This document shows, one piece after another, positions 357 through 46,440 of a stretch of DNA of 64,000 nucleotides (position 1 is its first letter; each line of letters begins with the position of its first letter). Position numbers and translations under genes: made by a program. The stretch is from Nitrospirota bacterium. Its GTDB lineage: Bacteria; Nitrospirota; UBA9217. The stretch lies in contig CAWFSF010000001.1 in the NCBI GenBank assembly GCA_963818475.1, positions 256,001-320,000 on the forward strand, in the 5' to 3' direction. Below the pieces are notes generated by a model. It did no database searches, was not told the DNA's origin, and was given only the letters and a program-made list of their open reading frames with translations.

Positions 357-558
357 AAATAATTTTTAACACATCGAAGAAGGAATGTAAAGGATGATTC
401 CCCGGTGGCCTGAAAGGAATTCTCACGATGTCATATAAAAACGTCGCATTTGCCTCATATGATTTGCATCATTACCCATGACCGTTGTTATAGTACAATA
501 ACGACATTGAATCGTTCAATACCTGTCACGATACTTCTAGCTGAAGAAAAACCGTTCC

Positions 559-824
559 GTGGATTACAAACACCTTCATCGCATCTTGCCCATGGCGGGC
601 ATTTTCATCCTGCTGGCAGCACCGCCTGCTCGCCTCGTCGCGTGCCGGCTGAAGCGGCAGCGCCCTATCACAACCTGGGTGCCATGAGCCCCGGCGGAAA
701 AACGGAAATTGATGACATCAAACAGAAGCTGCGGATGCTGAACGAGAAACGCCTTAAAGGGGAGCTGTCAGGGCAAGAGTGTGAGAAGTTGAAGGATCAA
801 CTGCTTGATGAGAAGGGCTTCTAG
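559..824 (+). CDS. Small exported/lipoprotein-like protein with C-terminal SHOCT-like helix, probably frameshifted near 620
   Basis: Hydrophobic N-terminus (MAGIFILLAA) is in one frame; TACSPRR...QKLRMLNEKRLKGELSGQECEKLKDQLL is in ORF 450..824. Confidence 0.4.
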
Positions 825-853
825 GGCGCGGGGGAACGGAGGATCAAGGATTT

Positions 854-879
854 GTAGGGGCGGGTTTCAAACCCGCCCT
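854..879 (+). repeat. GTAG-type REP hairpin
   Basis: GTAG followed by stem GGGCGGGTTT-C-AAACCCGCCC. Confidence 0.7.
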
Positions 880-921
880 AAGCATAACCTCGGACGACAC
901 ATGGGGAAATAGCCGCAACGA

Positions 922-1149
922 TCACGAAGCTTTTTCCAGTCGCTCCGCAACCCAAACCTTGATGATCGACTGCCGGGGGACCCCAAGGCGTTTTGCCTCT
1001 TTGTCCAATAACTGGATCATCCACACGGGGAAGTCCACGTTCACGCGTTTCTGTTCATGCTCGGGCCTTCGCGCCTTTTTCAGATCCAGGTGCTTTGAAA
1101 TATCCGCACCCTCATCGAATTTTTTGTCAAAATCACGCGCTTTCACTTT
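922..1149 (-). CDS. brnA: BrnA/CopG-like antitoxin
   Basis: FDKKFDEG...KRVNVDFPVWMIQLLDKEAKRLGVPRQSIIKVWVAERL (ribbon-helix-helix); overlaps upstream BrnT. Confidence 0.85.
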   Translation of the reverse strand, partial: KVKARDFDKKFDEGADISKHLDLKKARRPEHEQKRVNVDFPVWMIQLLDKEAKRLGVPRQSIIKVWVAERLEKAS

Positions 1150-1402
1150 CATATATATCAACCTCCTCTTTCCTCGACCGCCGCACCGATATCAACCTTA
1201 CTTTCCCGTCTCGATAGGTGATGACGCCCGACCAGTGCTTTCCCGCTATCCTTCCAATCACCAGATAGCGCTGTTCGTCAATGGTTTGAACGGGAATTTC
1301 TATCAAATCGGGATCATCCCACAAAGCTTGAGCCTCATGGAAATCGAGCCCGTGTTTTTGCTTGTTGCTGTCGCTCTTTTTGGAGTCGAACTCAAATTCC
1401 AT
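1133..1402 (-). CDS. brnT: BrnT family RNase toxin
   Basis: MEFEFDSKKSDSNKQKHGLDFHEA...RYLVIGRI...VRLISVRRS. Confidence 0.9.
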   Translation of the reverse strand: MEFEFDSKKSDSNKQKHGLDFHEAQALWDDPDLIEIPVQTIDEQRYLVIGRIAGKHWSGVITYRDGKVRLISVRRSRKEEVDIYESESA

Positions 1403-1614
1403 GGTATAGAAATTATACCTTAATTATACCGGCGGTCAAGGGTTCTTTTCAAGGATGCGTCGGATTTCGCGCGTTCTACCCGACCTCCTGACGGTGAAAT
1501 CACGGGGGAACGGATGCTCCATGAAGTGAAACTCAACAGTTCCCAAAAACATCATTCACAACGATCGTTAAGTTTGTTGCGTCAGTTTCATATTGCTCTT
1601 CCTGTCCTACCGAC

Positions 1615-2184
1615 TCACGCAGTTTTCCGTTGAATGAGTCTCACAATATTCAAAAGTATCGCCACTATCGGTTTGAGTATGAACCCCACGGGTTTTAGCC
1701 ATTTGTACCTCTGGCGAAAATAATGACGCCCAAGTTTTTTCTGCCAGTCTTCTGCAACATCCTCACGTTCTCGGTGTTCTGGCGCACGTGTTGAATGAAT
1801 ATGATGCCCCAGTTCATGGTACAACACCTCTGTAAGTAATAAATCCTGAAACAAAGGGGCCTTAACAACCAGAATAGGCCAGCGGTGAATGATCTTATCG
1901 ACGAAAAGTTCGATCGTGGCTGCTTTCCCTTGACACTTGTAGTGATATAAACCGCGACACTCACGGACAGCTACTTTGCGCTTTCTCGATAAGGTTTTTT
2001 GTCTTCTTCGACTATGATTAAGCCCGTCGATATTTGTTAATATGACAGAATGGAGCCCATTAACATACTTCCCCGGGACGCCGTCAATAAGACGCTCAAC
2101 AGACCTGCGAACCCATGACGGTGGAGAATAATCTTTGTAACTTTCGCAAATTTCAATTTTTTGCTTATTGATCAACGCCGCCAA
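1615..2184 (-). CDS. Hypothetical protein with HExxH zincin-like motif
   Basis: VLYHELGHHIH...EDVAE; lower GC than the neighbouring RNB gene. Confidence 0.6.
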   Translation of the reverse strand: MAALINKQKIEICESYKDYSPPSWVRRSVERLIDGVPGKYVNGLHSVILTNIDGLNHSRRRQKTLSRKRKVAVRECRGLYHYKCQGKAATIELFVDKIIHRWPILVVKAPLFQDLLLTEVLYHELGHHIHSTRAPEHREREDVAEDWQKKLGRHYFRQRYKWLKPVGFILKPIVAILLNIVRLIQRKTA

Positions 2185-3669
2185 CTATTCCACCCGTTTG
2201 AAGTCGATATACCCGCGCTCAACATCCGTACGGACCAGCTGCACCCGCAGTTGATTGCCGACGTCAAGGCCGTCCTGACCGCTCGACAGCCTGCCTTCGA
2301 TGGGCGGATGGAGCAGCCGGACCCAGGTGCCTTTTGCCGCAGCGCCGGTGACGATGGCATCGAAGCGCTCGCCGACTCTGTTCTCCAGGAGCATGGCTGC
2401 CGCGGATTTTCTGACCTGCCGTTCGACCTTCTTCGCCGCATCCTCTTTTTCCGTGCAATGCTTTGCGAGCGATTCGAGCTCGCCATGCGCGTAGGGAAGC
2501 TCCTGCCCGCCGAGGGCGGACTTGAGCAGCCGCTGGGTAATAACGTCCGGAAAGCGGCGGTTCGGCGCCGTGGAATGGGCATAGTCCCTGACTGCGAGGC
2601 CGAAATGGCCGGTCGTGCTGTCGGCGGTTGATCCGGGAACCCGCACGGCATATTCACCGGGTCCCATCAGCTTGATCACGGACAAGGAAAGATCGGGAAA
2701 GCGTACGGGATCGGCTGCCCGCTCCTGCGTCAGGAATTGCTCCAGCGCTTTTGAGTCCGGCGCTGCCGGCAGCTTATAGCGCTTCTCCGCAGCAAGCTCG
2801 ACGATGCGGTCCCATCGTTTGGGCGTCCGCACAACGCGCCTGAGCGAAGGAAGCTTTTTGGCAAATAGAAAGCGCGACGTAACGCCGTTCGCGGCGACCA
2901 TGAAGTTCTCGATGATGTCATGGGCCCTTCCGCCCTTTTCAGCGGACACGTCCTTGAGCTCATCGGCATCGAACACCAGCCTCGCCTCCACGGTCTCGAG
3001 GGTCAAGGCGCCGTGGTCATGCCTGAAGGTTTTCATTTCCTGTGCCACCCGGTCCTGGAGCCAAAGGTTCTCAGCAAGGCCGTCCACCTCTCCGATCTCG
3101 ATCGGCATGGAACCCTTGCCGTCGAGCCAGTCGGCAAGGCTGTTGTAGCAGAGTTTCGCGCGGTTCTGGACCAGCGCCCCGTACACATCGGAGCGCCTGA
3201 GCGACCCGTCCGCCGCGATCTCCATTTCAACCACGACAGCATGCCGTTCTGATGCGTAATTAAGCGAGGTCAGATCGGTCGAAAGCTTCTCCGGCAGCAT
3301 GGGGAAGATCCGTGCCTCGGTATAGACCGACGTCGTGTTCTGGCGCGCGTGCGCATCGATGGCAGAATCTTTTTTGACCAGCGCATCCACATCGGCGATC
3401 GCGACAAATATCTTCGCTGCACCATCAGGCAATGCTTCGGCAACCGTGAGCTGGTCCAGGTCGCGGGAGTCGTCGTTGTCGATGGAGCACCAGATCAGAT
3501 GCCGCAGATCGCGGGTCTGACCTTCGGCAATGGCCACGTGCCCCTGCATGGTCTCGAGCTCTGCCAGCGCCTGGGTTGAGAACTCCGGCAACAGGCCCCG
3601 TTCGAGCATTGCTCGGCGGGCGATGCGCTGCAGGATGGTTCGGTGCTTTTTCGCGTTTGGATCAGTCAT
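2185..3669 (-). CDS. RNB-domain exoribonuclease (RNase II/R family)
   Basis: SIDNDDSRDLDQL, IENFMVAAN, HFGLAVRDYAHSTAPNRRFPD motifs; C-terminal S1-like domain. Confidence 0.9.
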   Translation of the reverse strand: MTDPNAKKHRTILQRIARRAMLERGLLPEFSTQALAELETMQGHVAIAEGQTRDLRHLIWCSIDNDDSRDLDQLTVAEALPDGAAKIFVAIADVDALVKKDSAIDAHARQNTTSVYTEARIFPMLPEKLSTDLTSLNYASERHAVVVEMEIAADGSLRRSDVYGALVQNRAKLCYNSLADWLDGKGSMPIEIGEVDGLAENLWLQDRVAQEMKTFRHDHGALTLETVEARLVFDADELKDVSAEKGGRAHDIIENFMVAANGVTSRFLFAKKLPSLRRVVRTPKRWDRIVELAAEKRYKLPAAPDSKALEQFLTQERAADPVRFPDLSLSVIKLMGPGEYAVRVPGSTADSTTGHFGLAVRDYAHSTAPNRRFPDVITQRLLKSALGGQELPYAHGELESLAKHCTEKEDAAKKVERQVRKSAAAMLLENRVGERFDAIVTGAAAKGTWVRLLHPPIEGRLSSGQDGLDVGNQLRVQLVRTDVERGYIDFKRVE

Positions 3670-3876
3670 AAGGGAACCTCGGAATGGATTTATATTACCG
3701 GCATGGGAAACGTTGAAGCGGATTCATTATATATAGTGACCGGAAAAAGCACAATAAAAGAAAAAGCGATTGAGACGCGGACAAAGCTGAAACCCGGACT
3801 TGTGAGCTGACCGTGAATCGGCTATAATATGCCACTTTTCAGCAGGAATATATTTCACCACAAGGAGGCACACTAC

Positions 3877-4605
3877 ATGTCAAGAAGCACCAGGATCAGC
3901 AGGATCGCGGCAACATTGTTTTTTGTATTATTTATTGCCGGGGTCGCGTTCTCAAACTCCAGCAGCGAACCAGGGGTATCCCCGGACGAGGCCCTGCAAA
4001 AGCTGATGGAAGGCAACCAACATTACGTGGATAACAAGCTGACCAATGCTGCGCAATGCGACGCTGCAGCACGGACCTCGCTGGCCAGGTCCCAGAAACC
4101 CTACGCCATCATCCTCACCTGTTCCGACTCCCGCGTCCCGCCGGAAATCATTTTCGATAAAGGTCTGGGTGAGATCTTTGTTGTCCGAGTTGCGGGAAAC
4201 ATACCCGATCCTGTCGTTCTCGGGAGCATCGAGTATGCCGCCGAGCATCTGGGCTCGACCCTGGTAATGGTGTTGGGACACGAGCGCTGCGGAGCGGTCA
4301 CTGCCACCGTGGATTCAAAAGGGAAGAGTACCGGCAGCGTAAACATTGACGCCATCGTCAAGGGCATTGAACCAAACGTCAAGGTAGCCGCACACGATTG
4401 CGACGCTTGCAAGGGTGTTGCAAAATGCGCCGAAACAAAGAAAAACGATTTTGTGGAATGCGTGATCGATGCCAATGCAAAAACAGTGGCTGCCGGCCTG
4501 ACAAAGAGATCCAAGATCCTCAAACATCTGGCCGAAGAGAAAAAGCTCAAGATCGTGGCCGCCAGGTATGATTTGGATGAAGGCACGGTAACACTGTTCA
4601 AGTAG
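3877..4605 (+). CDS. Beta-class carbonic anhydrase with signal peptide
   Basis: CSDSRVPPE, VRVAGN, GHERCGAV Zn ligands; SD AAGGAGG before ATG 3877. Confidence 0.93.
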   Translation: MSRSTRISRIAATLFFVLFIAGVAFSNSSSEPGVSPDEALQKLMEGNQHYVDNKLTNAAQCDAAARTSLARSQKPYAIILTCSDSRVPPEIIFDKGLGEIFVVRVAGNIPDPVVLGSIEYAAEHLGSTLVMVLGHERCGAVTATVDSKGKSTGSVNIDAIVKGIEPNVKVAAHDCDACKGVAKCAETKKNDFVECVIDANAKTVAAGLTKRSKILKHLAEEKKLKIVAARYDLDEGTVTLFK

Positions 4606-4794
4606 GATGAACGAAGCAGAGCGGGAAGAATAGCGAGGGTCGTGTTTCAACCTTGCTCAAAAGCAAGTTGGCACACGACCCTTATTTTTTGGCAGTTCGT
4701 TGTTTGAGTCCGGCAGGTTGGGCAAAAGATCTGTAGAAAAAGCCCGTTTGAATGATGACAAAATTTGAGAAACGACTTTCGCTACAGGTTCAAC
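3928..4794. repeat. Direct repeat copy 1 (~865 bp): carbonic anhydrase 3' part plus downstream DNA up to the cassette core site
   Basis: Near-identical to 7805-8668 with several substitutions and small indels. Confidence 0.95.
4637..4682 (+). terminator. Long hairpin downstream of carbonic anhydrase (probable terminator); second copy near 8509-8554
   Basis: AGGGTCGTGT...ACACGACCCT stem followed by TATTTTTT. Confidence 0.55.
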
Positions 4795-4846
4795 GCGGCG
4801 CTGACGCGCCGCCTCTGGCGCGTCGCAGTCGAGCGCCAGGTTGGTC
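4788..4846 (-). other. attC site (59 bp)
   Basis: Minus strand GACCAAC...GTTGAAC with imperfect GC-rich palindrome; 5 bp after the stop of 4852..5892. Confidence 0.85.
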
Positions 4847-4851
4847 CTAAA

Positions 4852-5892
4852 CTATTTGAGCCCCCAGTCTGTAAGATGGGGAAAGGACTGCCAGAGCGCG
4901 TAAAAAACTGTCATCATGAGAATTATAATGAGAACCAGCATCTGCCACGTTGAAGTACTGCTTTGCTGTTCTCTCAAAGACGGCTCAGAAAAATTTGTGG
5001 CAAGTTCAAGTTGTGGGTTTAACGTATTTACAATGGCAATAACCTGCTTGATCTCTGTTATATATTTCCCAAATGTTGAAAGTCCTATTTCATAAATATC
5101 ATTTCGCATAGTCCTGATTATAAGAAAAGAACGCTCAGACATATAAAGGTCTTTCATCTTCCCTTGAATAGCTATCACATCTGATAAAGGGATAATATCT
5201 CTTGTCGTCCAGCCGTTAGGCTTTCGGAGAGAAAAACAGTTGTAATCAAGGAAAATCAAGTTCGCTGAAGTGATGACTAAAGCTTTCCTAATTATCCTTT
5301 TACCGTTTATGAATTTGTTAGTAAACATGTTCAATGTTTTGTAGAACAAGACTTCCTCGCCTTCCCCTAAACTCAGTAAGTTTAGCAAAGCTGGAGGAAT
5401 TTTATCGCCCTTTACATGAGGTGATATTTTGGCAGGCGAAGCGGGAAGGGCATCCCCTTTTTTATAATCGCAATTCGAGCATGAACCGACTAAGTAAGAA
5501 TTATGGTAATGGCATGAGGGACATGTCTCAAAATATTGATTCCGAGTAATATCACTGATCAGTCGTTTAAACGATTTTTGAATCAGAAGGCGCACAACAA
5601 TAAAAGCTAAAAAAACGATGATGAAATAATTCTTAGTAGACGGGAAGATGATGGGGCCGTTCATAAAATCCAAATACGCAGATAAAACATAGGCCAGCAC
5701 ACCGATTACAACTGTTTTTTGTAGAAATTTTGATCCTTTTAAAGACTGCTCGATAGCAAAAACAATGAAAATCCTATAACTGCCAATTCCAGAAATAAAA
5801 AACAGAATGGCAGTGACGACACCTGCCATACTTAAAATATAATCACGTTGTGGGATTGTTAGATTCCTGACCTTCATGGATATCGCTCGCAA
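4852..5892 (-). CDS. Cassette-encoded membrane protein with Zn-ribbon and PH-like cytoplasmic region
   Basis: Low GC, N-terminal TM segments, CPSC-x10-CSNC, C-terminal TM; bounded by GTTAGTCC and attC. Confidence 0.7.
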   Translation of the reverse strand: MRAISMKVRNLTIPQRDYILSMAGVVTAILFFISGIGSYRIFIVFAIEQSLKGSKFLQKTVVIGVLAYVLSAYLDFMNGPIIFPSTKNYFIIVFLAFIVVRLLIQKSFKRLISDITRNQYFETCPSCHYHNSYLVGSCSNCDYKKGDALPASPAKISPHVKGDKIPPALLNLLSLGEGEEVLFYKTLNMFTNKFINGKRIIRKALVITSANLIFLDYNCFSLRKPNGWTTRDIIPLSDVIAIQGKMKDLYMSERSFLIIRTMRNDIYEIGLSTFGKYITEIKQVIAIVNTLNPQLELATNFSEPSLREQQSSTSTWQMLVLIIILMMTVFYALWQSFPHLTDWGLK

Positions 5893-5920
5893 TATTCAGT
5901 TCATTTTATGGACTAACACG

Positions 5921-5979
5921 GATTAACGCGCGCCTGACGCGCCGCCTTTGGCGCGTCGCTGTCGAGGCGCTTGTTGTAT
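5921..5979 (-). other. attC site (59 bp)
   Basis: Minus strand ATACAAC...GTTAATC; near-identical to 12483-12541. Confidence 0.85.
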
Positions 5980-5983
5980 TTGA

Positions 5984-6694
5984 TTACGATTGCATGTAGC
6001 CGTTTTGTTTGCTCTTAAAGTGGGTAATCAATCCTTGTTCAAAAAAGAACATTAAGTCGTTAAGGGACAATTTGCTGATGACATATTTCTTCCTATGCTT
6101 ACTAATTGTTGTCGTTCCTGACATATTCACAATCAATTTAGCTTCATGAACAAATTGCGATCTGACATCGTATAGATACTTTGAGAGATCGTCGATTGTG
6201 GCATTAGAGTTTGCGATTTCCAATTTTTGTAAAATCGTTGACTGATGCTGGTCAGCCAATGACTTAAAGAAGGCCATCGATTGCTGGATTGATCCAAATT
6301 CTCTTTTGTATTGACGGAAATAACCTTTCAGTTCTTCTTTGTCTTTAATAGGAAATGTTATAATTGATTTTTTCCTAACAAGGTAATCAAAGAATTCGAT
6401 ATACGGTTCACAGTGTAGAGACTCAATCAGGGAGAATATTGCAATGTACTTATAGGTATCTGTAAGATAATCAATCCTTTTATTCAAACCAGGAATCTTT
6501 ATCAGCCAATCACCCCGTTTAACCAGAAATAAATAAAATGATGCTGTTTTCAAAAAAAAATTCTTATCTTCATCTGTTGTTATGGTCTTATAATATTCAT
6601 CGAACACTTTCCGACTTCTAAAGTGACTTTTAAGGGCGAGATAGGAATATTTTAAAAATTTATCCTTTGCCTCCAAATATCGCATATCCTTCAT
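5984..6694 (-). CDS. Cassette-encoded HEPN-like protein (Apea-type)
   Basis: IFSLIESL...LYDVRSQFVHEA (Rx4H); low GC; followed by attC. Confidence 0.6.
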   Translation of the reverse strand: MKDMRYLEAKDKFLKYSYLALKSHFRSRKVFDEYYKTITTDEDKNFFLKTASFYLFLVKRGDWLIKIPGLNKRIDYLTDTYKYIAIFSLIESLHCEPYIEFFDYLVRKKSIITFPIKDKEELKGYFRQYKREFGSIQQSMAFFKSLADQHQSTILQKLEIANSNATIDDLSKYLYDVRSQFVHEAKLIVNMSGTTTISKHRKKYVISKLSLNDLMFFFEQGLITHFKSKQNGYMQS

Positions 6695-6712
6695 AAGCCA
6701 GCCTCTGGATAA

Positions 6713-7799
6713 ATCTTGGGGACGTTGTTGTTATTTGATATGATACATTATCTTCCAGATTTTTGTTCCATTCGCTGAATAGCTTTTGTAATTGCCGGTG
6801 TGCTGACTCCCACCTGTCGGGCTATGGCGGCAGCCGACAACCCCAGCTCTTCTCTACCCCGCATGGCAATGGTTGCCCGCGTTTCGCTTACAGCCCTGCG
6901 TTTTCCACCTCCACGCAGTTCAAGAGGATTGATCCCGCTCCTTCGGCATTCCTCCCCTATGATCTTCTTGATGGTTTTTCCCGCCCGGGTGTATTTGAGC
7001 TGGCGCAGGTGCCGTTCTTCCGTTTCTTTCAGGATCTGATAGACAAAATCACCGCCGCCAAGTATGCGCTGATCGAAATCTTCTTGCTGTCCTCTCCGGC
7101 GCATTGCCAGCACCTGTGACCATCCGCCCTGGCTTCGAATAAGGCCTCCGCCGGTCAGCTCCTTGACAGGACCCTGGTCAATTCCTTCCCGCATGAACCG
7201 GCGATACTCATTTGCAGCCTTCCGATGGGTGACCCCAAATTGGGACATCACTCCCTCGATATCCATCCACGGATACTTGGCCTTTCCGACGAGTGTTCTG
7301 TGGCCGCACCACGCATAACGGTCCAGTTCTTCGATGGTTTTAACGATTCCTGCGCGGACGGGATTAAGATGGATGTAACGAACAAGAGCCAGAAGGTAAT
7401 TGTCTTCATCGCAGAGAATGGATTTATAGCGGTTTTCAAACAGGTGCCCCGTCCTGTTATGGCGGCGGTTGTAGTACTGCGCGTACCAGGTGAGAAGCTT
7501 TCGCATGACGCAGGATATGCCATCCTTGCCGCTCTTGAAGAGAATGTGGACATGATTCCTCATCAACGCCCAGGCGTATACGGTGCTTTTCCCGTCAGCC
7601 ACATTGAGGCCGAGTCGCTCGAGGAAGAGGCCTCTGTCCTGATCGTCTTTGAATATGTCTGTTTTGTCGATGCCCCGAACCATGATGTGATGCAAGGCGC
7701 CGGGAACATCGAGGCGGGCTTGGCGCGGCATGGGTCTATTATAGTGAAAAGCGGTTCGCTGTCAAGAAATATATCAGATAGCAACAACGTCCCCAAGAT
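6713..7799. mobile_element. HUH (Y1/RAYT-like) element bounded by 29-bp inverted repeats
   Basis: 6713-6741 ATCTTGGGGACGTTGTTGTTATTTGATAT vs reverse complement of 7771-7799 ATCTTGGGGACGTTGTTGCTATCTGATAT (27/29). Confidence 0.8.
6748..7731 (-). CDS. REP-associated tyrosine transposase-like protein (Y1_Tnp plus C-terminal DnaA-C-like HTH)
   Basis: MPRQARLDVPGALHHIMVRG, LMRNHVH (HUH), GHLFENRYKS, YIHLNPVRAG. Confidence 0.9.
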   Translation of the reverse strand: MPRQARLDVPGALHHIMVRGIDKTDIFKDDQDRGLFLERLGLNVADGKSTVYAWALMRNHVHILFKSGKDGISCVMRKLLTWYAQYYNRRHNRTGHLFENRYKSILCDEDNYLLALVRYIHLNPVRAGIVKTIEELDRYAWCGHRTLVGKAKYPWMDIEGVMSQFGVTHRKAANEYRRFMREGIDQGPVKELTGGGLIRSQGGWSQVLAMRRRGQQEDFDQRILGGGDFVYQILKETEERHLRQLKYTRAGKTIKKIIGEECRRSGINPLELRGGGKRRAVSETRATIAMRGREELGLSAAAIARQVGVSTPAITKAIQRMEQKSGR

Positions 7800-7804
7800 G
7801 TCCG

Positions 7805-8482
7805 TTATTTATTGCCGGGGTCGCGTTCTCAAACTCCAGCAGCGAACCAGGGGTATCCCCGGACGAGGCCCTGCAAAAGCTGATGGAAGGCAACCAACAT
7901 TATGTGGATAACAAGCTGACCAATGCTGCGCAATGCGACGCTGCAGCACGGACCTCGCTGGCCAGGTCCCAGAAACCCTACGCCATCATCCTCACCTGTT
8001 CCGACTCCCGCGTCCCGCCGGAAATCATTTTCGATAAAGGTCTGGGTGAGATCTTTGTTGTCCGAGTTGCGGGAAACATACCCGATCCTGTCGTTCTCGG
8101 GAGCATCGAGTATGCCGCCGAGCATCTGGGCTCGACCCTGGTAATGGTGTTGGGACACGAGCGCTGCGGAGCGGTCACTGCCACCGTGGATTCAAAAGGG
8201 AAGAGTACCGGCAGCGTAAACATTGACGCCATCGTCAAGGGCATTGAACCAAACGTCAAGGTAGCCGCACACGATTGCGACGCTTGCAAGGGTGTTGCAA
8301 AATGCGCCGAAACAAAGAAAAACGATTTTGTGGAATGCGTGATCGATGCCAATGCAAAAACAGTGGCTGCCGGCCTGACAAAGAGATCCAAGATACTCAA
8401 ACATCTGTCCGAAGAGAAAAAGCTCAAGATCGTGGCCGCCAGGTATGATTTGGATGAAGGCACGGTAACACTGTTTAAGTAG
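7805..8482 (+). pseudogene. 5'-truncated second copy of carbonic anhydrase
   Basis: Begins within the signal-peptide codons; no promoter, RBS or start; rest of frame intact. Confidence 0.85.
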
Positions 8483-8668
8483 GGTGGAATTAAGCGGGAA
8501 GAATAGCGAGGGTCGTGTTTCAACCTTGCTCAAAAGCAAGTTGGCACACGACCCTTATTTTGTGGCAGTTCGTTGTTTGAGTCCGGCAGGTTGGGCAAAA
8601 GATCTGTAGAAAAAGCCCGTTTTGAATGATGACAAAATTTGAGAAACGACTTTCGCTACAAGTTCAAC
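7805..8668. repeat. Direct repeat copy 2 (~865 bp)
   Basis: Matches 3928-4794; homology stops exactly at GTTCAAC. Confidence 0.95.
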
Positions 8669-8717
8669 ACGGAGTTCACACGCCGCTTAGCGGTCGGCGT
8701 GGAACGACAGGTTATGC
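8662..8717 (-). other. attC site (56 bp, different sequence type)
   Basis: Minus strand GCATAAC...GTTGAAC; stop codon of 8712..11327 lies in TAAC. Confidence 0.8.
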
Positions 8718-11327
8718 TTTGTCATCCTTTTTTTTTATTATTTTCTCTTCAGACTTATGCTCATCTATTATCTGCTTAGCCTCGCGTTCATAGGACTCAG
8801 ATAGTTCGCGTAATGTGGCAGCAAATCTTGCAAAACCTGCAGCCTCCACGGCATTGGCTTTGTTTAGCCATTCTGCAGCCAATTCATATTCAGGTTTCCC
8901 AGTGGGATCAACCCAATGAACACCTCTTGAGTTATGAACTTCCGTGCGAAATCCCCTTCGCAGATCTTCTGCATCTCTTGCATTTAAGACTCTGGCAATC
9001 GCCTGATCAATCCACAATCCATCAGGATCGGCAGGGCAATTCAGCAAGACACCTCCAACGTGGATCATGGCTACTGCAAGGTGGCCAGAGTCTTTGCATT
9101 GTTTTTTAACAATAGCAAACCATGATTCAAATTCTTCAACAGAAAAACTGCCATCGTCCTGTAAACCTGGCGGCCGACGCCACTCGTGCAAGAGTCTCCA
9201 TGCATTGCTGGCAATAGCCGCTTTTTTCTCATCGACTTCCTCAGCCTGCTGATCTTCATTTTTAGATCGATAGATAAGCCGAATAACCTCAACAAAAAAT
9301 TCCGGCTTCGTAGCAAGGCGTTTTTCAAGCAACTTCGGTTCAGCACCATCAGGTCTAGTCAGCAACGGCAAGTAAGCCCATTCCACTTTGAAGAGATCAT
9401 TATCCTGGGCCTGCGGATCATTTTGCAGAGCCTTTATAAGCTCCGTAATATTATAGGAATCCATTGACTGCCCAGGCTCATTCGCTGAAACTGCGTCTAG
9501 TAGCGCTCTAACGGTTCGTGCTCTATCCAGTGGCATCTTGTTAAATAACCGAGAATACAGACAGCCGATTGCTGACAGTGGCCGTGAAACTTCCAGTAGT
9601 TTATCGATTGCATACAATGGATCGCTTTCAGTTTGGTAAGGATTGACAGGCACCTTTTGCCAGTACGTCTGTTCATATGTTCCTAGCCACTGAGTAGCTC
9701 GTACCCACGCGTCAGTCTCGAAAGGTAAATACATAAGGAATTGACAGCTCTGCGCCAACGACCATCTTGACCTATCGATTGCGTCAACCCACGCCCAGCC
9801 CCGCCCATGAAAACGGCTCAAAATAAAACTGGCAATGAATTGCCTATATTTGATATTTTCATTATCCAAATAATTGGGAAGTAACCCGATATCAATTTCT
9901 TTTTCATCGATTAAACCCAACGCCCGACCGATTTGGTTTGGCGATTCAACTGTCGCAGCAAACTTCAGAATACCCTGAAGTCCGCTTGTATGGATTAACG
10001 CACGAACCGCTTGAAAGCGCTTATCGTCGAGTTTCTTACGCTGCTCTTCCCAATTACCTCTCTCGTCATAGAGATCAAAATCTCTTTTACTGAAAAGTCT
10101 CTGATGCTGGCCTTCAAGACTTTGCGGAGCCAGCTTGTTTGCAGTAGTCTCAATTTGATCTACCTTGTCCGAACTCAACGCCCATTTTGCATCAGCAAAT
10201 TTGCGGTGTTTCTGCACAAAATCCATTAGACTTATCCAAATCGGCAACCGCTGATCTTCCGATAGTTCGGCGACCGCTGCAGATGCTAAATGCTCTAATA
10301 GCACATCAAATGAAGGCTTTGGCAAATTATCAATATTGCTGACAAGTTCTTTAAGCCTGTCCAAATTATCGCGAGCTATTTCGATGGCAAACTCAGCATA
10401 TACGGTCACCTGATCCCAATATTCTTGATTTGTAACTTTTGGTTGCCAGTCTTCGGGAAGTGTGATATGCCAACGGGGTTTGTAAGCACCACTAGATGTC
10501 TGATGTTGATTTGGTAGAAAAGCGATAACTACTTTCCATGCCACATCTGGAAAGTCTGCTTTAATCGCTTTAATTGACGAAATACGCTTGTCGATAGGCG
10601 CCAAGGTCTGTGGGTACCACGGCAACAATATCTGTACTATCGAATTGGCTGGACGATTCGCCCATCTACCCCCAGGATCATGTGCTGCGAGTTCCGCTAA
10701 AATGACGATTGATCGTGTTAGATATTTATCGCTCCAGGACAAGCTTTCTAACGCCCACAGCAAACCAGTCATATAGTTTCTGCCACTAATACCCTTACCT
10801 TCCTGTGCAAATAAATTATCAAAAGGGCATGGAGTTTGCTGCAATGCATCCTCGACTTGACTTAGGAATTCATCTGGAGCGGCCTCGGCCAAGGTCGGCA
10901 ATAAATCATTAATGCTACCCCAAAGTTTCCAATCCGCTTGTTTGAAAATGTCGCGAATAGTCAAAACGGCAATCAATTCTGCTTTATATCGAGAGACATT
11001 TACTAATTTATCGCCATAGTTCCCAAGCAGCGCCAAGGTTTCAGCTATTCCCTTACGTAGACCTAACGAGTGCTTGAGTATCTTCCCCTGTATGCTTGCA
11101 ACGTAACGCTCTTCGGCAGGCAACTCAAATTGTGGATCCAATTCTTTAAGTACCTCGACAGCGCATGCTTTGAATTTGTCTAAATGAGCATCAAATATTC
11201 TAGAACCAAAAGATTCAAAGAGCATTTTGCGGTCTGAAACCGCCCATTGACCGTTTCTAAGCGACAGTGGATTGCTCTGTTCTTGAAGGACTTCGCGTAG
11301 GTCACCTATCCAAGTGTTATAATCCAT
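8712..11327 (-). CDS. Large alpha-helical protein, C-terminal partner or part of the upstream nuclease-like ORF
   Basis: 871 aa, low GC, LPTLAEAAPDEFL and GLLWALESLSW motifs; overlaps upstream ORF by 11 bp. Confidence 0.7.
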   Translation of the reverse strand: MDYNTWIGDLREVLQEQSNPLSLRNGQWAVSDRKMLFESFGSRIFDAHLDKFKACAVEVLKELDPQFELPAEERYVASIQGKILKHSLGLRKGIAETLALLGNYGDKLVNVSRYKAELIAVLTIRDIFKQADWKLWGSINDLLPTLAEAAPDEFLSQVEDALQQTPCPFDNLFAQEGKGISGRNYMTGLLWALESLSWSDKYLTRSIVILAELAAHDPGGRWANRPANSIVQILLPWYPQTLAPIDKRISSIKAIKADFPDVAWKVVIAFLPNQHQTSSGAYKPRWHITLPEDWQPKVTNQEYWDQVTVYAEFAIEIARDNLDRLKELVSNIDNLPKPSFDVLLEHLASAAVAELSEDQRLPIWISLMDFVQKHRKFADAKWALSSDKVDQIETTANKLAPQSLEGQHQRLFSKRDFDLYDERGNWEEQRKKLDDKRFQAVRALIHTSGLQGILKFAATVESPNQIGRALGLIDEKEIDIGLLPNYLDNENIKYRQFIASFILSRFHGRGWAWVDAIDRSRWSLAQSCQFLMYLPFETDAWVRATQWLGTYEQTYWQKVPVNPYQTESDPLYAIDKLLEVSRPLSAIGCLYSRLFNKMPLDRARTVRALLDAVSANEPGQSMDSYNITELIKALQNDPQAQDNDLFKVEWAYLPLLTRPDGAEPKLLEKRLATKPEFFVEVIRLIYRSKNEDQQAEEVDEKKAAIASNAWRLLHEWRRPPGLQDDGSFSVEEFESWFAIVKKQCKDSGHLAVAMIHVGGVLLNCPADPDGLWIDQAIARVLNARDAEDLRRGFRTEVHNSRGVHWVDPTGKPEYELAAEWLNKANAVEAAGFARFAATLRELSESYEREAKQIIDEHKSEEKIIKKKDDKA

Positions 11328-12339
11328 CGATCAGCCTCTTTATAACTTCTAAATCGGATTCATTTCTTTCATCCCACTGACCAACTAGAGCGGCTATGGC
11401 CAAAGCAAGTGGGCTAACTTGTGAGGTCAAGTTACTTGTTGAGCGTGGCATATCTGGTTTTACAAACTCTGTCGGAATGCTTGCGGCCGCCCTTTGTTTG
11501 AAAGCGTCTCTTAAATCTTGAGGAAGCTTGTCAAGCGTTACAGTTCCTGCATCCTGATTCCAAGTCTCGACAATATCAACGACCCTCGACCAGGCCCACT
11601 GTGGATAGCTCGAGTTAAATTGAGAAATATGAGAGTGAAGCAACGATAAGACTACTCCTACCTCTTTACCTAGATCGTAACCTAGCAAATAGAATTTATT
11701 CAAAAATGCATATAGCACTTCATCAGAAACTTTCTTGCTGCCATTTGCACCTTTTAGATGATGTCGAAATACATCGAGTTTCTCTTTTGCTTTTGATGGG
11801 CTAAATCTTGTCTGGTTAACATTTCTAAAAAATTCAACACTGTCTTTGGTGTGCCGTGCTTGATCAAGTAACCACACTACGTTATGAGCATCTGTTTCAT
11901 TTAAAGGACCTGTAATTAGCGCTATAGCGTCTTTACGCTTGTCAAATAGCACAGTGTTATTAAAGTCGCTCCACGCTGCATGCATGACTTCGGCAAGAAC
12001 AGTATTGCCCTTGGTAAAACCAATTGAGTGCTTGATCTGCCCAAGGAGTTTGCATTCCTCTCTTGTGTTGCCATTTCCAACAAAAACGATAAGATCATCT
12101 GTATCAAAGCCGTCTATTTTTCCTTGAAGCTTTACTTGTCTTATCGGCCAACATGGCAGAGCGGGGGCGTATCCGCCGGTTAGCATTAGCGCAACAAAGG
12201 AAGCTTGAACGTGAGCTTCAAAATGAAATCCAACACCACCCGTCGAACGGGGATTGCTCAGCAGCTTTTTTGCTTTTGAGCTAATGCCACTATTCTTACG
12301 TCGACGCTTACTAGTTTTAGAAACAGATTTTCTTTTCAA
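11317..12339 (-). CDS. PD-(D/E)xK nuclease-like domain protein
   Basis: STGGVGFHFE...DTDDLIV...LLGQIKHS pattern, typical of effector nucleases at the N-terminus of defence proteins. Confidence 0.65.
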   Translation of the reverse strand: MKRKSVSKTSKRRRKNSGISSKAKKLLSNPRSTGGVGFHFEAHVQASFVALMLTGGYAPALPCWPIRQVKLQGKIDGFDTDDLIVFVGNGNTREECKLLGQIKHSIGFTKGNTVLAEVMHAAWSDFNNTVLFDKRKDAIALITGPLNETDAHNVVWLLDQARHTKDSVEFFRNVNQTRFSPSKAKEKLDVFRHHLKGANGSKKVSDEVLYAFLNKFYLLGYDLGKEVGVVLSLLHSHISQFNSSYPQWAWSRVVDIVETWNQDAGTVTLDKLPQDLRDAFKQRAAASIPTEFVKPDMPRSTSNLTSQVSPLALAIAALVGQWDERNESDLEVIKRLIDGL

Positions 12340-12358
12340 GTATTCCCCGCAATTAATT

Positions 12359-12386
12359 ATTAAAATATGTTTCCGTCGTCAGTCAA
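12359..12386 (-). promoter_or_regulatory. Cassette-internal sigma70-like promoter
   Basis: Minus strand TTGACT-N16-TTTAAT about 20 bp upstream of the nuclease ORF. Confidence 0.45.
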
Positions 12387-12482
12387 TTTTAGCTGAACTT
12401 GAATATTCAGACCTGGAATCAAAAAATGCACAATGATCATGTGCTTCTAAGACAGGATGCTACTGATATTCTCAGCTTCTTA

Positions 12483-12541
12483 TAATAACACGCGCCTGAC
12501 GCGCCGCCTTTGGCACGTCGCTGTCGAGGCGCAGGTTAGTT
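12483..12541 (-). other. attC site (59 bp)
   Basis: Minus strand AACTAAC...GTTATTA; stop codon of upstream gene lies in TAAC. Confidence 0.88.
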
Positions 12542-13498
12542 TCCTTGACGTTTCCGTTTTACAATATCTGCAATAAATTCTTGTGCGGCGGCTTCACCCT
12601 TTACAAAGAGAATATCGTAATATTGCTGATCCATTCCTTCTGTCACATCTGATTCTGATATATCGACGGTGTGTGCTCCGCATGCGAATGCAACGTCTCT
12701 TCTTTTCTTAATTTCTGATCGAGTAGCATCATCAGAGGTTGAATCGTTTAATGATTCGGATTGGATAGCTAGGCTAAAAAGACTTTCAAGGCAGGTCAAG
12801 CTTGATGCTTCCAAATTCTTTCCCATAGCCATGCACGAATCCTGAGCCTCTTGTCCATACTCTTTTTTCAGATGACGGCACAGGTGCCGTAATTTAAGAT
12901 AGATGGCAGCACTATTGGAATTCCAAAATGCAAGTTCGCGTGCCGGTCGTCCGCCGCATTTGTCCATCTCAGCAACTTGGGCAATCGCATCAAATCTTTG
13001 CTTTGGATAGCCGGTAAATTTATACGTGTTGGCTTTTTTAATTTGAGACAGAACTTTTTGATCCGCTCCTTCTTCTTGAAGTAATAGTGCATTTGAATAA
13101 TAGGAAAGAGCATTATCTTTATCATCTTGCAGTAGTCTTACGACATCTTCTTTAAATGGCTTTAAAGGTAAATTACGGCTCGGATCAAAATTATATGCAA
13201 GTAAGGATATCGTTGCTATGCCTTTTGGAGATTCTATTCGGCTGGCTGATTCTAAAATACCTTTGCCTATACTCGAAGTTGGATCGCTGGCCAACATTAT
13301 TATCCCAGTTCCCATCATCAAATTAGGGTTATTGCTTGCTTTAATTGAACCTAACTCTTTTCCAGAAAACTGCTTACAATTACCAGTTAGAGACCTCGCT
13401 GGTTGGCAGTCTTCAGACTCGGAGGCCTCTAAGGATGAAGTCAAAAGAAGTGATACCGACATGATGGCAATTAATAGGACTATTCGATGTATGTTCAT
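12536..13498 (-). CDS. Cassette-encoded secreted Cys-containing helical protein
   Basis: SD AGGAG before ATG 13498, signal peptide, several Cys. Confidence 0.7.
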   Translation of the reverse strand: MNIHRIVLLIAIMSVSLLLTSSLEASESEDCQPARSLTGNCKQFSGKELGSIKASNNPNLMMGTGIIMLASDPTSSIGKGILESASRIESPKGIATISLLAYNFDPSRNLPLKPFKEDVVRLLQDDKDNALSYYSNALLLQEEGADQKVLSQIKKANTYKFTGYPKQRFDAIAQVAEMDKCGGRPARELAFWNSNSAAIYLKLRHLCRHLKKEYGQEAQDSCMAMGKNLEASSLTCLESLFSLAIQSESLNDSTSDDATRSEIKKRRDVAFACGAHTVDISESDVTEGMDQQYYDILFVKGEAAAQEFIADIVKRKRQGN

Positions 13499-13509
13499 TT
13501 TTCTCCTAA

Positions 13510-13543
13510 GACTAACGCGCGTCACTGTAGGCGCAGGTTAATT
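13510..13543 (-). other. Internally deleted attC site (34 bp)
   Basis: AATTAAC-CTGCGCCTACAGTGACGCGC-GTTAGTC; 5' half matches the 59-bp type. Confidence 0.7.
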
Positions 13544-14017
13544 CCTTGTAATTTGTATCAATGCAAGAAAGCCAGAACCGAGTGGTTTATTTATAGGAAT
13601 AAGCTCCACTAAAACAAAATTCATCGTAAGAGTTGCTAACGACAGAAAACATACGAGAAATAAAACAATCCGAAGACTCACATGTTTGTTAATCGTTTTC
13701 AGACTCACATAGAAGATAACATCCAGGGAGATGAGAGAAATCAGGCCATCTTGAACCAAAGACCACATTGAAATATTTGAAGGCGCGGTTAGCTCATAAA
13801 GAGAGAATATCGCGACGATGATATTGAGGATTATGATTGATCGCAGTGTTATTTCTTTTTGCTGTTCAGATTTCTTGAAAAAGATTAGATAATAGGAAGC
13901 GACAGCTATGCCGATGAGAAATAGTATATATATCGTCCAAACGATGTTCCAGTGACCATAAAGATAGTCTCTGAATGTGTCACGGTAAGCAAGGATTATC
14001 TGATCCACCCCTCGCAT
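13538..14017 (-). CDS. Cassette-encoded 4-TM membrane protein (first cassette)
   Basis: Hydrophobic, low GC, SD AAGGAG; cassette start GTTAATTC is complementary to its end GAATTAAC. Confidence 0.75.
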   Translation of the reverse strand: MRGVDQIILAYRDTFRDYLYGHWNIVWTIYILFLIGIAVASYYLIFFKKSEQQKEITLRSIIILNIIVAIFSLYELTAPSNISMWSLVQDGLISLISLDVIFYVSLKTINKHVSLRIVLFLVCFLSLATLTMNFVLVELIPINKPLGSGFLALIQITRN

Positions 14018-14036
14018 TTGGCTCCTTTCATTTCAG

Positions 14037-14150
14037 AATTAACCAGTTATTGACTATAAGGAAGCAGGTTTATGATACCATAAACAAGTTTATGATAGCA
14101 TAAACCGGGTATTGCTATCATAAACTTTTGAGGTTTATGTTATGATAAAC
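14037..14150 (-). promoter_or_regulatory. attI-like entry site with four 18-bp palindromic boxes
   Basis: Core GTTAATT at 14043-14037; boxes of consensus GTTTATG-N4-CATAAAC at 14068, 14088, 14108, 14133. Confidence 0.55.
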
Positions 14151-14177
14151 TTTTCCAATTCGGTATTCCCCATTTCC

Positions 14178-15332
14178 CTACATTACTTCCACCATCTTCC
14201 TGAAATGGCGGCAGTTCTGCACCAGGTCAGGACCATGCCGGAACAACCCCCCGCCGATCAGGAAGATCAGGTCCTGCCCATAGGTCTCGAGCATGTCCGG
14301 CACCTTGTCGAGACTCATGCCCCCGCCCGGAGCGGGAAAGATGGATTTTAAATGGCCCATGGGCTCGCCGGTCGCAAACGCGATCTCTTTACACTCCTCA
14401 CGGCTGAAGGAAAAACGGCCGCCGAAGTTCGGGAAGATGGTCGCATCGGCACCTGCCAGCCGCGCAAGCTGGCCGAAGATGACGCCGTGCGAGATGCCGT
14501 TCCGGCTCGTGACAAAGCTCCCCTGCAGCGCGGGGTGTGTCAGGACCGGCAAGGCTAAAGAGTCGTCGTCAGCCAACTCCCTCATCAGGTCAAAACCGAT
14601 GAGCCCCGGCGCCACCATCATCCCGCCTGCCCCCGCCTGTTTTGCGATCCTGGCCCGCTTCACCACCTCGCGGTGCGGAGCCGTGATGTTCGGGATATAG
14701 AGGCAGGGCTGGCCTGTTTCCTTAATTCCTTTTTGAACAGCTGCAGCGCAGAGCCGCACCCGTTCTTCGAAGGGAGAGCAGCTTTGATCGCTCAGGCCGT
14801 GGTCATCCTTGATGATATCCATGCCTCCCAGCACGAACTGGTACGCCAGATCTGCAAGCTCCTGTGACGATAGCCCCATGGGCTTGAGCGCCGTGGAAAG
14901 AAGCGGCCGCTTCGGTACGTTCAGGAGCGTGCGGAGCCCTTGCCTGCCGAAGCGCGGCCCTTTGAAGGCACGAAGAAGGGATTCGGGAAGATCAAGATGC
15001 TCGACCCGTATGCCCGGCTTGATGCTGCTGTTGCCGAATACGACGTTCATGAACTGCGTCAGCTCTCCCGCAGCGATCTCGTTTGCATAACTGATGATCG
15101 CTTTGAAGCCGTCGCCGCCCCAGGTCCCGAAATGCTCGATCCTGCCGAACACATGGTCCCTGATGATGCCCTCCGGCACTTCCTCTGCAGGGAATTCCAC
15201 GGTCTGCTCAATGCAGATGTCCTCCGCCTTGACGCGGGCTTCCGCCTCGCTGCCGAAGAGGCGGTAGGTCACGGAGAACCGGTCGCCGGAGAACAGCGAT
15301 GCCGGGGTGCAGGTTGTCTGGATTATGGACAT
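14178..15332 (-). CDS. RuBisCO-like protein (form IV)
   Basis: CIEQTVE, LKPMGLS, DIIKDDHGL (KDDH rather than KDDE), FPAPGGG, LIGGG. Confidence 0.9.
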   Translation of the reverse strand: MSIIQTTCTPASLFSGDRFSVTYRLFGSEAEARVKAEDICIEQTVEFPAEEVPEGIIRDHVFGRIEHFGTWGGDGFKAIISYANEIAAGELTQFMNVVFGNSSIKPGIRVEHLDLPESLLRAFKGPRFGRQGLRTLLNVPKRPLLSTALKPMGLSSQELADLAYQFVLGGMDIIKDDHGLSDQSCSPFEERVRLCAAAVQKGIKETGQPCLYIPNITAPHREVVKRARIAKQAGAGGMMVAPGLIGFDLMRELADDDSLALPVLTHPALQGSFVTSRNGISHGVIFGQLARLAGADATIFPNFGGRFSFSREECKEIAFATGEPMGHLKSIFPAPGGGMSLDKVPDMLETYGQDLIFLIGGGLFRHGPDLVQNCRHFRKMVEVM

Positions 15333-32482: not shown

Positions 32483-32606
32483 TAATACAAACGCATTTAG
32501 ATTCGTTACTGATTTGCCCCTCACCTTTGTCCTCTCCCCAGCGGGGAGAGGGTAGGGCAGAGGGGGGACTTTCCTGGATGTAACAATATTTAATTCGTTT
32601 GCATTA
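32483..32606. mobile_element. MITE-like element copy 1 (~124 bp) with internal CCCTCTCCC...GGGGAGAGGG hairpin
   Basis: Near-identical to 34584-34706; imperfect TIR TAATACAAACGCATT / AATTCGTTTGCATTA. Confidence 0.75.
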
Positions 32607-34583: not shown

Positions 34584-34706
34584 TAATACAAACGCATTTA
34601 TATTCGTTACTGATTTGCCCCTCACCTTTGTCCTCTCCCCAGCGGGGAGAGGGTAGGGCGAGGGGGGACTTTCCTGGATGTAACAATATTTAATTCGTTT
34701 GCATTA
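34584..34706. mobile_element. MITE-like element copy 2
   Basis: Matches 32483-32606; its end coincides with the TAA stop of the AEC gene. An inverted partial relative lies near 60585-60643. Confidence 0.75.
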
Positions 34707-45771: not shown

Positions 45772-46440
45772 TTACGGCCAAGTTTTGCCATTTGATATGT
45801 GCTCCTGGGCAGCCACCAACCTGCTGATGGTCGCATAGTTCAATCCCAGATGATCCGCGATCTCCCTCTGAAGATATCCATGTTTCTCTACTGCCTCCGC
45901 TATTCGACGGTCCCGCTTGCGCTTGTCGCGCAGAAGGGCCTCCGGAAACAGTTTTTCCAGGGCCGGCCTCTTCAGGTATTTTTGACTCCGGGTGATCTCG
46001 GGCACCTCTTTGTGTTTTCTGAGATGATCTGTAAAGCGGTCTGCAAAATCCTCTTCACCGAGGATTGCCTGGCCCCGCATGTTGATCCAGACAGATTGCT
46101 TGCCGATTCCCCCTTTGACGAACTGCCGGTATTCCTGCTCCGCCTTTCCCCGCTTCCCGCTAAACTGGCCCAATACCCAGTCTATGGTGAGGCACGGATG
46201 TGCCTTTGATCTGCCCGCCGTGGCCAGGAAACTGGACCAGGGATAGGCCTCCGGCGTCTCGACCATCCTCGCCCGCACAGGATTCAGGACCACATAGCGG
46301 CAAACCTCAAGAAGATGACTGTCCTTCTGAATCAGGATGGCTTTATATCGTCCCTGGAACAGGTGGCCGGTCCTGCCATGCCAATTGTTAAAGAGCTGCG
46401 TGTAAACGTCGTTCAGTTGTCTCATGCCAATGGATAAATG
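45772..46440 (-). pseudogene. N-terminally truncated RAYT-like transposase
   Basis: LSIGMRQLNDVYTQ, GHLFQGRYKA, YVVLNPVRA present; the HUH-containing N-terminus is missing. Confidence 0.8.

Follow-up and report, generated by a model that had tools for sequence, protein, structure and literature searches.

Mobile elements with HUH nucleases have been connected with gene-cassette arrays before. In complex class 1 integrons, ISCR1 lies between the array and a truncated duplicate of the array's downstream conserved segment (PMC6834847, PMC3575428), and the accepted model, as outlined in one account, invokes an aberrant rolling circle, a free circle with a truncated 3' conserved segment (3'-CS) and rescue by homologous recombination (PMC6834847). 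In Halorhodospira halochloris, the Y1 HUH element ISHahl1 (IS200/605) lies directly beside a cluster of attC sites lacking an integrase (CALIN), and its authors speculate that an IS200/605 element in this position might move a CALIN without an integrase (PMC7923331). TIRtrons, which encode TIRYT proteins (Di Nocera 2013; TnpA-Y1 subclass 2.1, Quentin 2018), combine a Y1 HUH core and a C-terminal HTH_23-type domain with terminal inverted repeats (TIRs) beginning GGGG, an absence of repetitive extragenic palindrome (REP) hairpins and a low copy number (PMC3733652, PMC6006769). Here we describe a 64,000-nucleotide stretch of a Nitrospirota genome bin (G000:C1:256001-320000; hereafter the window), in which an element that we classify as a TIRtron separates two attC cassettes from a truncated duplicate of a beta-carbonic anhydrase (CA) gene. 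The bin, G000, comprises 4.66 Mb in 7 contigs and is 91% complete and 6.2% contaminated.

The locus shares part of its design with each of these systems. ISCR1 is IS91-like, with unlike ends (oriIS and terIS) and no inverted repeats according to the consulted part of its description (PMC3575428), whereas the present element encodes a Y1 TIRYT and has TIRs of about 40 nt. Furthermore, two attC cassettes make up the block that would have moved here, the array lies in a chromosome as a CALIN and lacks an integrase, and the duplicated segment is CA plus an insertion sequence (IS) remnant, as opposed to qacEdelta1/sul1 in ISCR1 integrons. ISHahl1 differs in carrying both tnpA and tnpB, in having hairpin ends without inverted repeats and in lying after the last attC site; the accessible text reports no duplication or joint (PMC7923331). 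Compared with the TIRtron motif as printed, GGGGWSAS, the TIR core of the window lineage, GGGGACGT, matches at 6 of 8 positions and is accompanied by an outer GGRAAC-N3-4 extension. The TIRtron descriptions, in the sections available, mention no rearrangement, flank duplication or link to attC arrays (PMC3733652, PMC6006769).

Duplications mediated by insertion sequences, and recombination between IS copies, offer a further comparison. In the usual IS-mediated duplication, IS copies bracket the duplicated segment. The window locus is alike in having a mobile element at the joint of a direct duplication and flanks that are non-contiguous, and unlike in having a single copy of the element and duplicated copies that have diverged.

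An earlier note on this DNA proposed that a circle produced by an HUH element had moved a cassette block without an integrase, and presented this as a mechanism not known to be described. That view of its novelty is wrong, given that ISCR1 is the textbook account of such a mechanism (PMC6834847, PMC3575428) and that the speculation on IS200/605 elements and CALINs is in print (PMC7923331). In the literature accessible to us, we found no published TIRtron that marks the joint of a rearrangement or is associated with attC arrays.

Results

The locus (2185-15332) consists, in order, of an RNB gene, the CA gene, a cluster of attC sites and cassettes, and a gene for a RuBisCO-like protein (RLP). 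Within it, the order described earlier (full CA, core site, two cassettes, a Y1 element flanked by inverted repeats, truncated CA, the same core and other cassettes) is confirmed in its coordinates. The full CA gene (copy 1, 3877..4605, plus strand; Pfam Pro_CA E=5.9e-38) is listed by the open reading frame (ORF) finder as 3829-4605; its likely start is the ATG at 3877, which is preceded by AAGGAGG and from which the 242-aa homologue of the same-genus genome G003 aligns. The sequence from CA codon 18 to the stop, followed by a terminator, an IS remnant and an attC R' core, is present twice in direct orientation on the plus strand, as copy 1 (a1, 3928..4794) and copy 2 (a1', 7805..8668). Each repeat thus holds the 3' part of the CA gene and about 190 bp beyond it, and the truncated CA of copy 2 (CA') lacks the promoter, the ribosome-binding site and 17 codons. 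The copies are 98.387% identical over 868 columns. They are separated by 11 substitutions, of which the 680 coding bases contain only 4, and by two indels, of 4 nt and 1 nt, in agreement with the two copies of about 865 bp with SNPs and indels noted earlier. Their homology stops, as also noted, at GTTCAAC (4788-4794 and 8662-8668), which on the cassette strand is the R' core GTTGAAC of two attC sites, attC1 and attC_X; beyond this common core the two attC sequences diverge. Cassette c1, attC2, cassette c2 and the 1.1-kb element lie between the repeats. No second copy of the 5' part of CA, which would mark a joint between the right end of the element and that part, was found in the genome. We regard the observation of a duplicated flank as confirmed.

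The 1.6% divergence between the copies, together with derived states present in both when the G003 CA serves as outgroup, points to two lineages and speaks against a recent in-place duplication, and the instability expected of direct 867-bp repeats argues in the same direction. Our tentative reading, held at somewhat less than even confidence, is that the region is a real recombinant of two diverged (about 98.4%) CALIN alleles in an RNB-RLP hotspot, with the TIRtron at the new joint. Lineage A would have carried the TIRtron just upstream of c2, with the cassette-strand order TIRtron-c2-attC2-c1-attC1-flank(CA)-RNB. In lineage B, the array would have ended ...cX-attC_X-flank(CA), and CA would have been interrupted at 3927|3928 by the same element, oriented as in lineage A. 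Two homologous crossovers, the first within the element and the second outside it, could then have joined the left part of B to the right part of A, giving cX-attC_X-CA'(truncated)-TIRtron-c2-c1-CA(full)-RNB and restoring an intact CA. What the sequence shows directly is the anatomy, the divergence of the copies, the exact element termini, the element family and the canonical cassette boundary at attC_X; the two lineages, the site of the element in each and the crossovers are inferred.

A duplication in place appears very unlikely by comparison with what the copies display. It would require the left end of the element to attack CA on a sister chromatid, giving a tandem duplication from 3928 to that end, and a subsequent attC1 x attC_X deletion to remove the second c1, c2 and element. 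Such a sequence of events would place the joint exactly at the left end and would make the joint between CA' and attC_X a canonical R' crossover, and a degraded intI N-terminus does exist elsewhere in the genome (C6:86498-86686), adjoining another array with attC sites at 79.3-84.4 kb. However, the copies would start identical and recombine away quickly, which leaves the 1.6% divergence unexplained, and the 91%-complete genome encodes no integrase over the TIGR02249 cut-off. This route also cannot yield L043, a homologue locus described below, in which the truncated copy follows another element, of 38% identity.

The element at the joint occupies 6707..7804 on the minus strand, with its left end (LE, the tnpA-upstream end) at 7804 and its right end (RE) at about 6707. 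Its gene (6748..7731, minus strand) encodes a 327-aa protein that matches Pfam Y1_Tnp at 39.4 bits (cut-off 23) and, at its C-terminus (residues 282-325), HTH_23 at 25.5 bits (cut-off 24.6); the HUH residues H60 and H62 and the tyrosine Y119 are invariant in 13 homologues. In its 29-bp inverted repeats (6713-6741 and 7771-7799), 27 of the 29 positions pair (E=2.5e-5 in a search of the entire genome). Terminal inverted repeats in place of REP hairpins are also found in the paralogues, which are arranged alike, and at 60 LE and 55 RE homologue ends. Judged by these domains and ends, the element is a TIRtron encoding a TIRYT (Y1 HUH subclass 2.1).

The earlier label of RAYT does not fit, as the protein fails the NCBIfam RAYT equivalog NF047646 (63.8 bits against a cut-off of 80) and the element has no REP flanks. 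Nor are the inverted repeats dispersed in many copies; a blastn-short search with both repeats against the 4.66-Mb genome returned the paralogues' own ends and one solo TIR (C6:637314-637339). An IS200/IS605 identity was set aside because of the TIRs of about 29-40 nt, since that family is defined by subterminal hairpins and lacks terminal inverted repeats (PMC7923331), and an ISCR/IS91 identity because Pfam at E<=0.01 lists only Y1_Tnp and HTH families and the ends are inverted repeats. Inspection of the ends by eye, rather than by folding, revealed no self-complementary stretch.

We derived an end consensus from the 60 LE and 55 RE homologue sequences, which come from several phyla. The core reads GGGGACGTTG / CAACGTCCCC (60 LE, 55 RE), and an outer extension carries the inverted repeat about 10 nt further out; at LE it reads GGRAAC-N3-4 and precedes the core, and at RE the complementary sequence follows the core. 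From this extension it follows that 7800-7804 lie inside the element, that CA' starts exactly at the LE terminus, and that the ATG of c2 lies 12 nt from the RE terminus. The distance of 5 bp between the right inverted repeat and the truncated CA, as reported earlier, is therefore correct, but these bases belong to the element and no gap to its terminus remains. At the other end, the 18 nt between the left inverted repeat and the c2 ATG and the lack of the expected cassette start are borne out: c2 has no upstream attC boundary, with no R' box 5' of it and only 12 nt (including AGAGG) between its ATG and the element.

A joint exactly at the outer LE terminus is what an ordinary insertion would leave and supports the route by insertion and recombination. 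Additionally, since the LE-flanking DNA of the 60 homologue copies contains no target motif, insertion at an arbitrary site in CA would be unremarkable. Tandem repetition of the outermost 9-14 nt, two to four times and together with the GGGG/CCCC run, is frequent at TIRtron ends, as seen in L039, L047, L057, L060, L062 and L065 and at the RE of L043. These stutters look as if ends had been nicked and rejoined out of register, and repeated nick-and-join is a possible explanation.

G000 contains three more TIRtrons, paralogues with 65-80% protein identity that all possess TIRs of their own. For the one at G000:C5:626.5 kb, a syntenic orthologue exists in G003 (92% over 7.7 kb), so that some TIRtron copies are old and immobile. 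A flank duplication was sought at this paralogue and rejected, the variable DNA on its LE side consisting of RHS orphan modules instead. Y1 fragments and a TIRtron were seen beside RHS genes and RHS orphan C-terminal modules at window 45772-46425, at G000:C5:618.5-635.6 kb and in L037 9876-13587 (G003).

Between RNB and RLP, the cassettes form an array that lacks an integrase, a CALIN. It contains four attC sites in 4788-12541, each with R''/R' boxes, an imperfect palindrome and an ORF stop beside R'', and no integron integrase in the genome scores over the TIGR02249 cut-off (best 105 bits against 265), from which the CALIN assignment follows. Among 43 window ORFs scanned with Pfam, which cover every large ORF up to about 20 kb from the array, none is a tyrosine recombinase. 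The attC sites were located with an nhmmer profile built from the genome's own sites, and this profile is lineage-specific. The genome's attC family numbers about 50 sites in scattered small groups, and 28 aligned sites end ...YAAC and GTTRnnn.

All features of the array lie on the minus strand. The first site, attC1 (4788..4846; R' GTTGAAC at 4794..4788, R'' GACCAAC at 4846..4840; nhmmer E=1e-13), has a single-stranded fold of -25.3 kcal/mol (z=-5.2), and the array's attC sites fold as imperfect hairpins. It is followed by c1 (ORF 4852..5892), which encodes a 346-aa membrane protein with a Cys-rich loop and no family assignment, by attC2 (5921..5979; R' GTTAATC; nhmmer E=1e-15) and by c2 (ORF 5984..6694), which encodes a 236-aa protein with an Rx4H motif and no family match. 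The earlier HEPN label for c2 finds no match in Pfam, NCBIfam or PADLOC, and its RSQFVH (Rx4H) motif was recognised by eye only. Beyond the element and CA', attC_X (8662..8717; R' GTTGAAC at 8668..8662; nhmmer E=2e-11) is of a different attC sequence type from attC1. Cassette cX (8712..12339) holds two ORFs (8712-11327 and 11317-12339; 871 and 340 aa) without family assignment. The fourth site, attC4 (12483..12541), was found by the attC profile, and two further ORFs (12536-13525 and 13538-14017) and a 34-nt attC-like stub (13508-13541) follow it. Every cassette ORF is on the minus strand with its stop abutting an attC site, and since the stops abut attC only on that strand, the array reads right to left, with CA at its distal end. 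The direction assumed in the earlier note is corrected accordingly: the array is on the minus strand, and the common 7-mer is the R' box GTTGAAC. In another array of this genome (G000:C6:77000-88500), a Y1 gene with 38% identity (80629-81405) was seen among the cassettes.

We compared the same locus in related genomes. The RNB gene is 89-90% identical in the same-genus genomes G003 and G004, where homology ends at window positions 3764 and 3686, respectively. G004 has RNB and an 87% identical RLP 2.9 kb apart, with a cytochrome-like gene and no CA between them. In G003, a sensor kinase gene and other cassettes come after RNB, and the CA of that genome adjoins an scpA-like gene elsewhere, in a region syntenic with G000:C6:2.22 Mb. 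CA had been taken as a conserved host anchor, and this comparison of the RNB-RLP locus does not sustain that view, CA being absent from it in G004 and situated elsewhere in G003. A genome of another genus, G011, carries cX at 92% identity, again with attC sites on its borders (window 8665-12462 = L033 7763-11556). This homology stops inside the R' of attC_X, the canonical integrase cassette boundary. Alleles with different last cassettes are to be expected. Among 40 relatives, we found no match to the flank or to c1/c2. The pattern of flank plus core gave 0 matches in metagenome contigs, and the CA pattern matched 2 contigs at 82% identity, both without RNB or attC.

To place the window in the context of its element family, we surveyed homologues in two samples. 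In the family sample, 25 of the 61 family genomes carried homologues at E<=1e-60, and 52 matches, with identities of 41-82%, lie outside the window; 44 loci were examined, four from G000 and 40 of the 48 matches in relatives. The wider sample comprised the best 80 of 576 relatives in a species-representative collection, and 6 loci were common to both samples. Loci with at least 300 bp on both flanks were considered assessable (33 + 64 loci, 92 unique). A search of 401 genomes of the phylum listed 17 further places; one, G251:C30, is L082, and most of the others are assumed to be among the 80 loci. Many TIRtron copies in fragmented metagenome-assembled genomes sit at contig ends.

A clear flanking direct repeat was found in 2 of the 92 assessable loci, namely the window and L043 (= L084). 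The association with truncated duplications of host genes, for which the earlier note had suggested a survey of homologues, is thus seen in one further case and is rare. In L043 (6001-8107), a 172-aa membrane-protein gene is complete just downstream of RE, and its first 468 bp are repeated at LE with 95-96% identity; this truncated copy is preceded by a different Y1 element (38% identity). Read along the tnpA strand, both loci run truncated copy, LE, element, RE, (block), full copy. The presumed joint sites of the two loci have no motif in common with RE or with each other. We also observed that both gene copies in L043 start within 2 nt of a Y1-element end, one at the IS1 RE and the other at the end of the 38%-identity element. 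The short flank repeats of L098, L105 and L126 (104-218 bp, 84-89%) were rejected, as none starts at the element, the upstream copies stopping 93-154 nt short of the tnpA start. In L098, the one of the three inspected, the repeats represent the 3' termini of paralogous genes and lie 75 nt from LE. The repeats of L145 were discounted as an internally repetitive gene.

An ISCR1-like origin is one that we consider possible, if on the doubtful side. In such a process, TIRYT would nick at LE, pass RE and read through c2, c1 and 867 bp of flank in a sister strain; the resulting 3.9-kb circle would close by joining LE to 3928. In a recipient with an array ending at attC_X, RecA recombination would then integrate it at the CA flank. 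It takes the fewest steps, gives the exact observed order and accounts both for the single-copy element and for the polarity seen in the window and in L043, with the truncated copy at LE and the full one downstream of RE. The tandem stutters at ends (L039, L060, L043 RE) could reflect repeated nick-and-join, and the ISCR1 model provides a printed HUH precedent (PMC6834847). On the other hand, the protein is a Y1 enzyme of the IS200/RAYT clade with no IS91/ISCR-type match, and characterised Y1 enzymes excise with both ends, according to the part of the literature consulted (PMC5027513). The stop sites, ...AATAAATAA| and ...CCTCTGT|, are unlike the RE consensus CCCC-N3-4-GTTCCC, a flanking duplication occurs in only the two assessable loci, no circle was observed, and the available sections of the TIRtron descriptions demonstrate neither mobility nor a function (PMC3733652, PMC6006769). 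The circle and homology proposed in the earlier note are therefore upheld in part: the anatomy fits a circle of element, c2, c1 and 867 bp of flank, and the 1.6% divergence and L043 agree with it, but the circle itself is not shown and the stop sites are without a motif.

Non-contiguous flanks were found at a further TIRtron, in L040 (7763-9420), where a DUF772 transposase gene is cut after about 90 codons at LE and the RE flank consists of the last 90 codons of a gene that appears, by eye, to be POT-type peptide transporter-like. These unrelated truncated flanks suggest that recombination or rearrangement at TIRtrons recurs.

The adjacency of homologues to attC sites, likewise part of the survey suggested in the earlier note, was present in 6 of the 44 family loci within the fetched flanks (window, G000:C5:526-530 kb, L040, L045, L049 and, weakly, L052), but in 0 of the 80 wider loci, a result that says little given the lineage-specific profile. 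Within G000, 3 of about 10 Y1 loci lie no more than 2 kb from an attC site. We consider the link between TIRtrons and arrays in this family to be real but modest; it may simply reflect common residence in variable DNA.

Inside contigs of the assembly, repeats of 1.9-3.1 kb and 99.9-100% identity are resolved; three 1.92-kb copies of 100% identity share a 7-kb stretch, and an exact repeat of 3.1 kb is placed on two contigs. We read this as a sign of long reads, which would bridge the 1.1-kb element and could span 4.7 kb. Only one public run contained any of the stretch, 7% of its words, in 15 short contigs of low depth, none bridging a junction; a 335-nt contig from it corresponds to copy 2 at 8137-8471, including both copy-2-specific bases. 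A pair of 7.3-kb segments at 97.6% identity on two contigs (G000:C6:1629393-1636722 and C5:279258-286592) possibly indicates a second strain in the bin, and such a sister strain would also suit recombination between two alleles.

A strain-chimeric assembly, in which two strains carry the element at different places and the assembler switched strain inside the 1.1-kb element, is in our view unlikely. The bin contamination of 6.2%, the 7.3-kb pair and the strain-level difference between the CA copies would suit it, and L043 comes from a fragmented assembly, a genome of 390 contigs. The resolved exact repeats, in contrast, point to reads longer than the element, every junction must still exist in real molecules, and a chimera needs the same coincidence of two element sites as recombination between alleles does, and needs it twice.

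The IS remnant within the duplicated segment belongs to a second element with a relation to attC sites. The 57-bp remnant in copy 1 (4731..4787, plus strand) retains both terminal repeats, has lost its interior and abuts the R' of attC1, and the remnant in a1' (8604-8661, plus strand) abuts the R' of attC_X. The remnant ends match a 1.83-kb element at G000:C3:154577-156376 and C6:2038831-2040632, the transposase of which is split into two ORFs and is IS5/IS1182-like (Pfam DUF772 E=3.9e-15). A 564-bp derivative is present at C6:1781045-1781608 and a further copy in another genus, in L040 (about 9100-9420). In every copy seen, the same end faces and directly adjoins the R' core (GTTGAAC or GTTGAAG) of an attC-like site, which makes this IS a candidate attC-targeting DDE element. 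Elements known to target attC sites are those of the IS1111 type and group IIC introns. In the literature that was accessible, we found no published description of a DUF772 IS specific for attC R' sites.

The variable locus is bordered on both sides by conserved genes. The left border is an RNase II-type exonuclease gene with RNB and S1 domains (2185..3669, minus strand; Pfam RNB E=3.5e-77) and the right border the RLP gene (14178..15332, minus strand; Pfam RuBisCO_large E=7e-30). Three or four palindromic GTTTATG-N-CATAAAC-like boxes at 14040-14160, between the last cassette ORF and the RLP gene, may represent an operator or a degraded attI-like region. Outside the locus, a 1.8-kb segment (window 404-2174) with a BrnT/CopG-type toxin-antitoxin pair and a 189-aa ORF is missing in G003 between the flanking homologies (L029 2810 to 2836), and a 118-nt repeat with a long internal hairpin is present in two copies 2.1 kb apart (window 32486-32603 and 34587-34703).

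Discussion

Two routes, insertion followed by recombination and circle formation followed by integration through homology, each give exactly the observed product. We tentatively favour the recombinant of two CALIN alleles, a route that would use only established steps and that fits the motif-less joint sites and the hybrid flanks of L040. Several points weigh against it. Two lineages would each have to carry the same low-copy element, at sites close to one another and identically oriented, and the genome contains no second copy of the element above 82% protein identity. This two-site coincidence would be needed again in L043. The parental alleles are also absent from the data searched, with 0 metagenome-contig matches and no match to the flank or to c1/c2 in the 40 relatives. 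Finally, both cases have the truncated copy at LE, an arrangement that the recombination route predicts half the time. The layout resembles that of a known mode of resistance-gene movement; that such a mode operated here cannot be proved from the sequence alone.

As a more general activity, it is conceivable, though we would not expect it, that TIRYT elements read through RE, close circles with downstream DNA and enter sister strains by homologous recombination. If true, this would constitute an integrase-independent route for whole blocks of attC cassettes, and it would be the first activity assigned to TIRtrons and a chromosomal counterpart of ISCR1. If ordinary transposition and recombination between strains produced the structure, the locus would be a well-documented example of an element serving as portable homology, and nothing more. 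The position of the DUF772 IS at attC R' cores, a by-product of this analysis, is perhaps worth as much as the TIRtron finding. The occurrence of a TIRtron at a duplicated-flank joint, twice and with the same polarity, provides a testable handle on TIRtron function and on the spread of CALINs.

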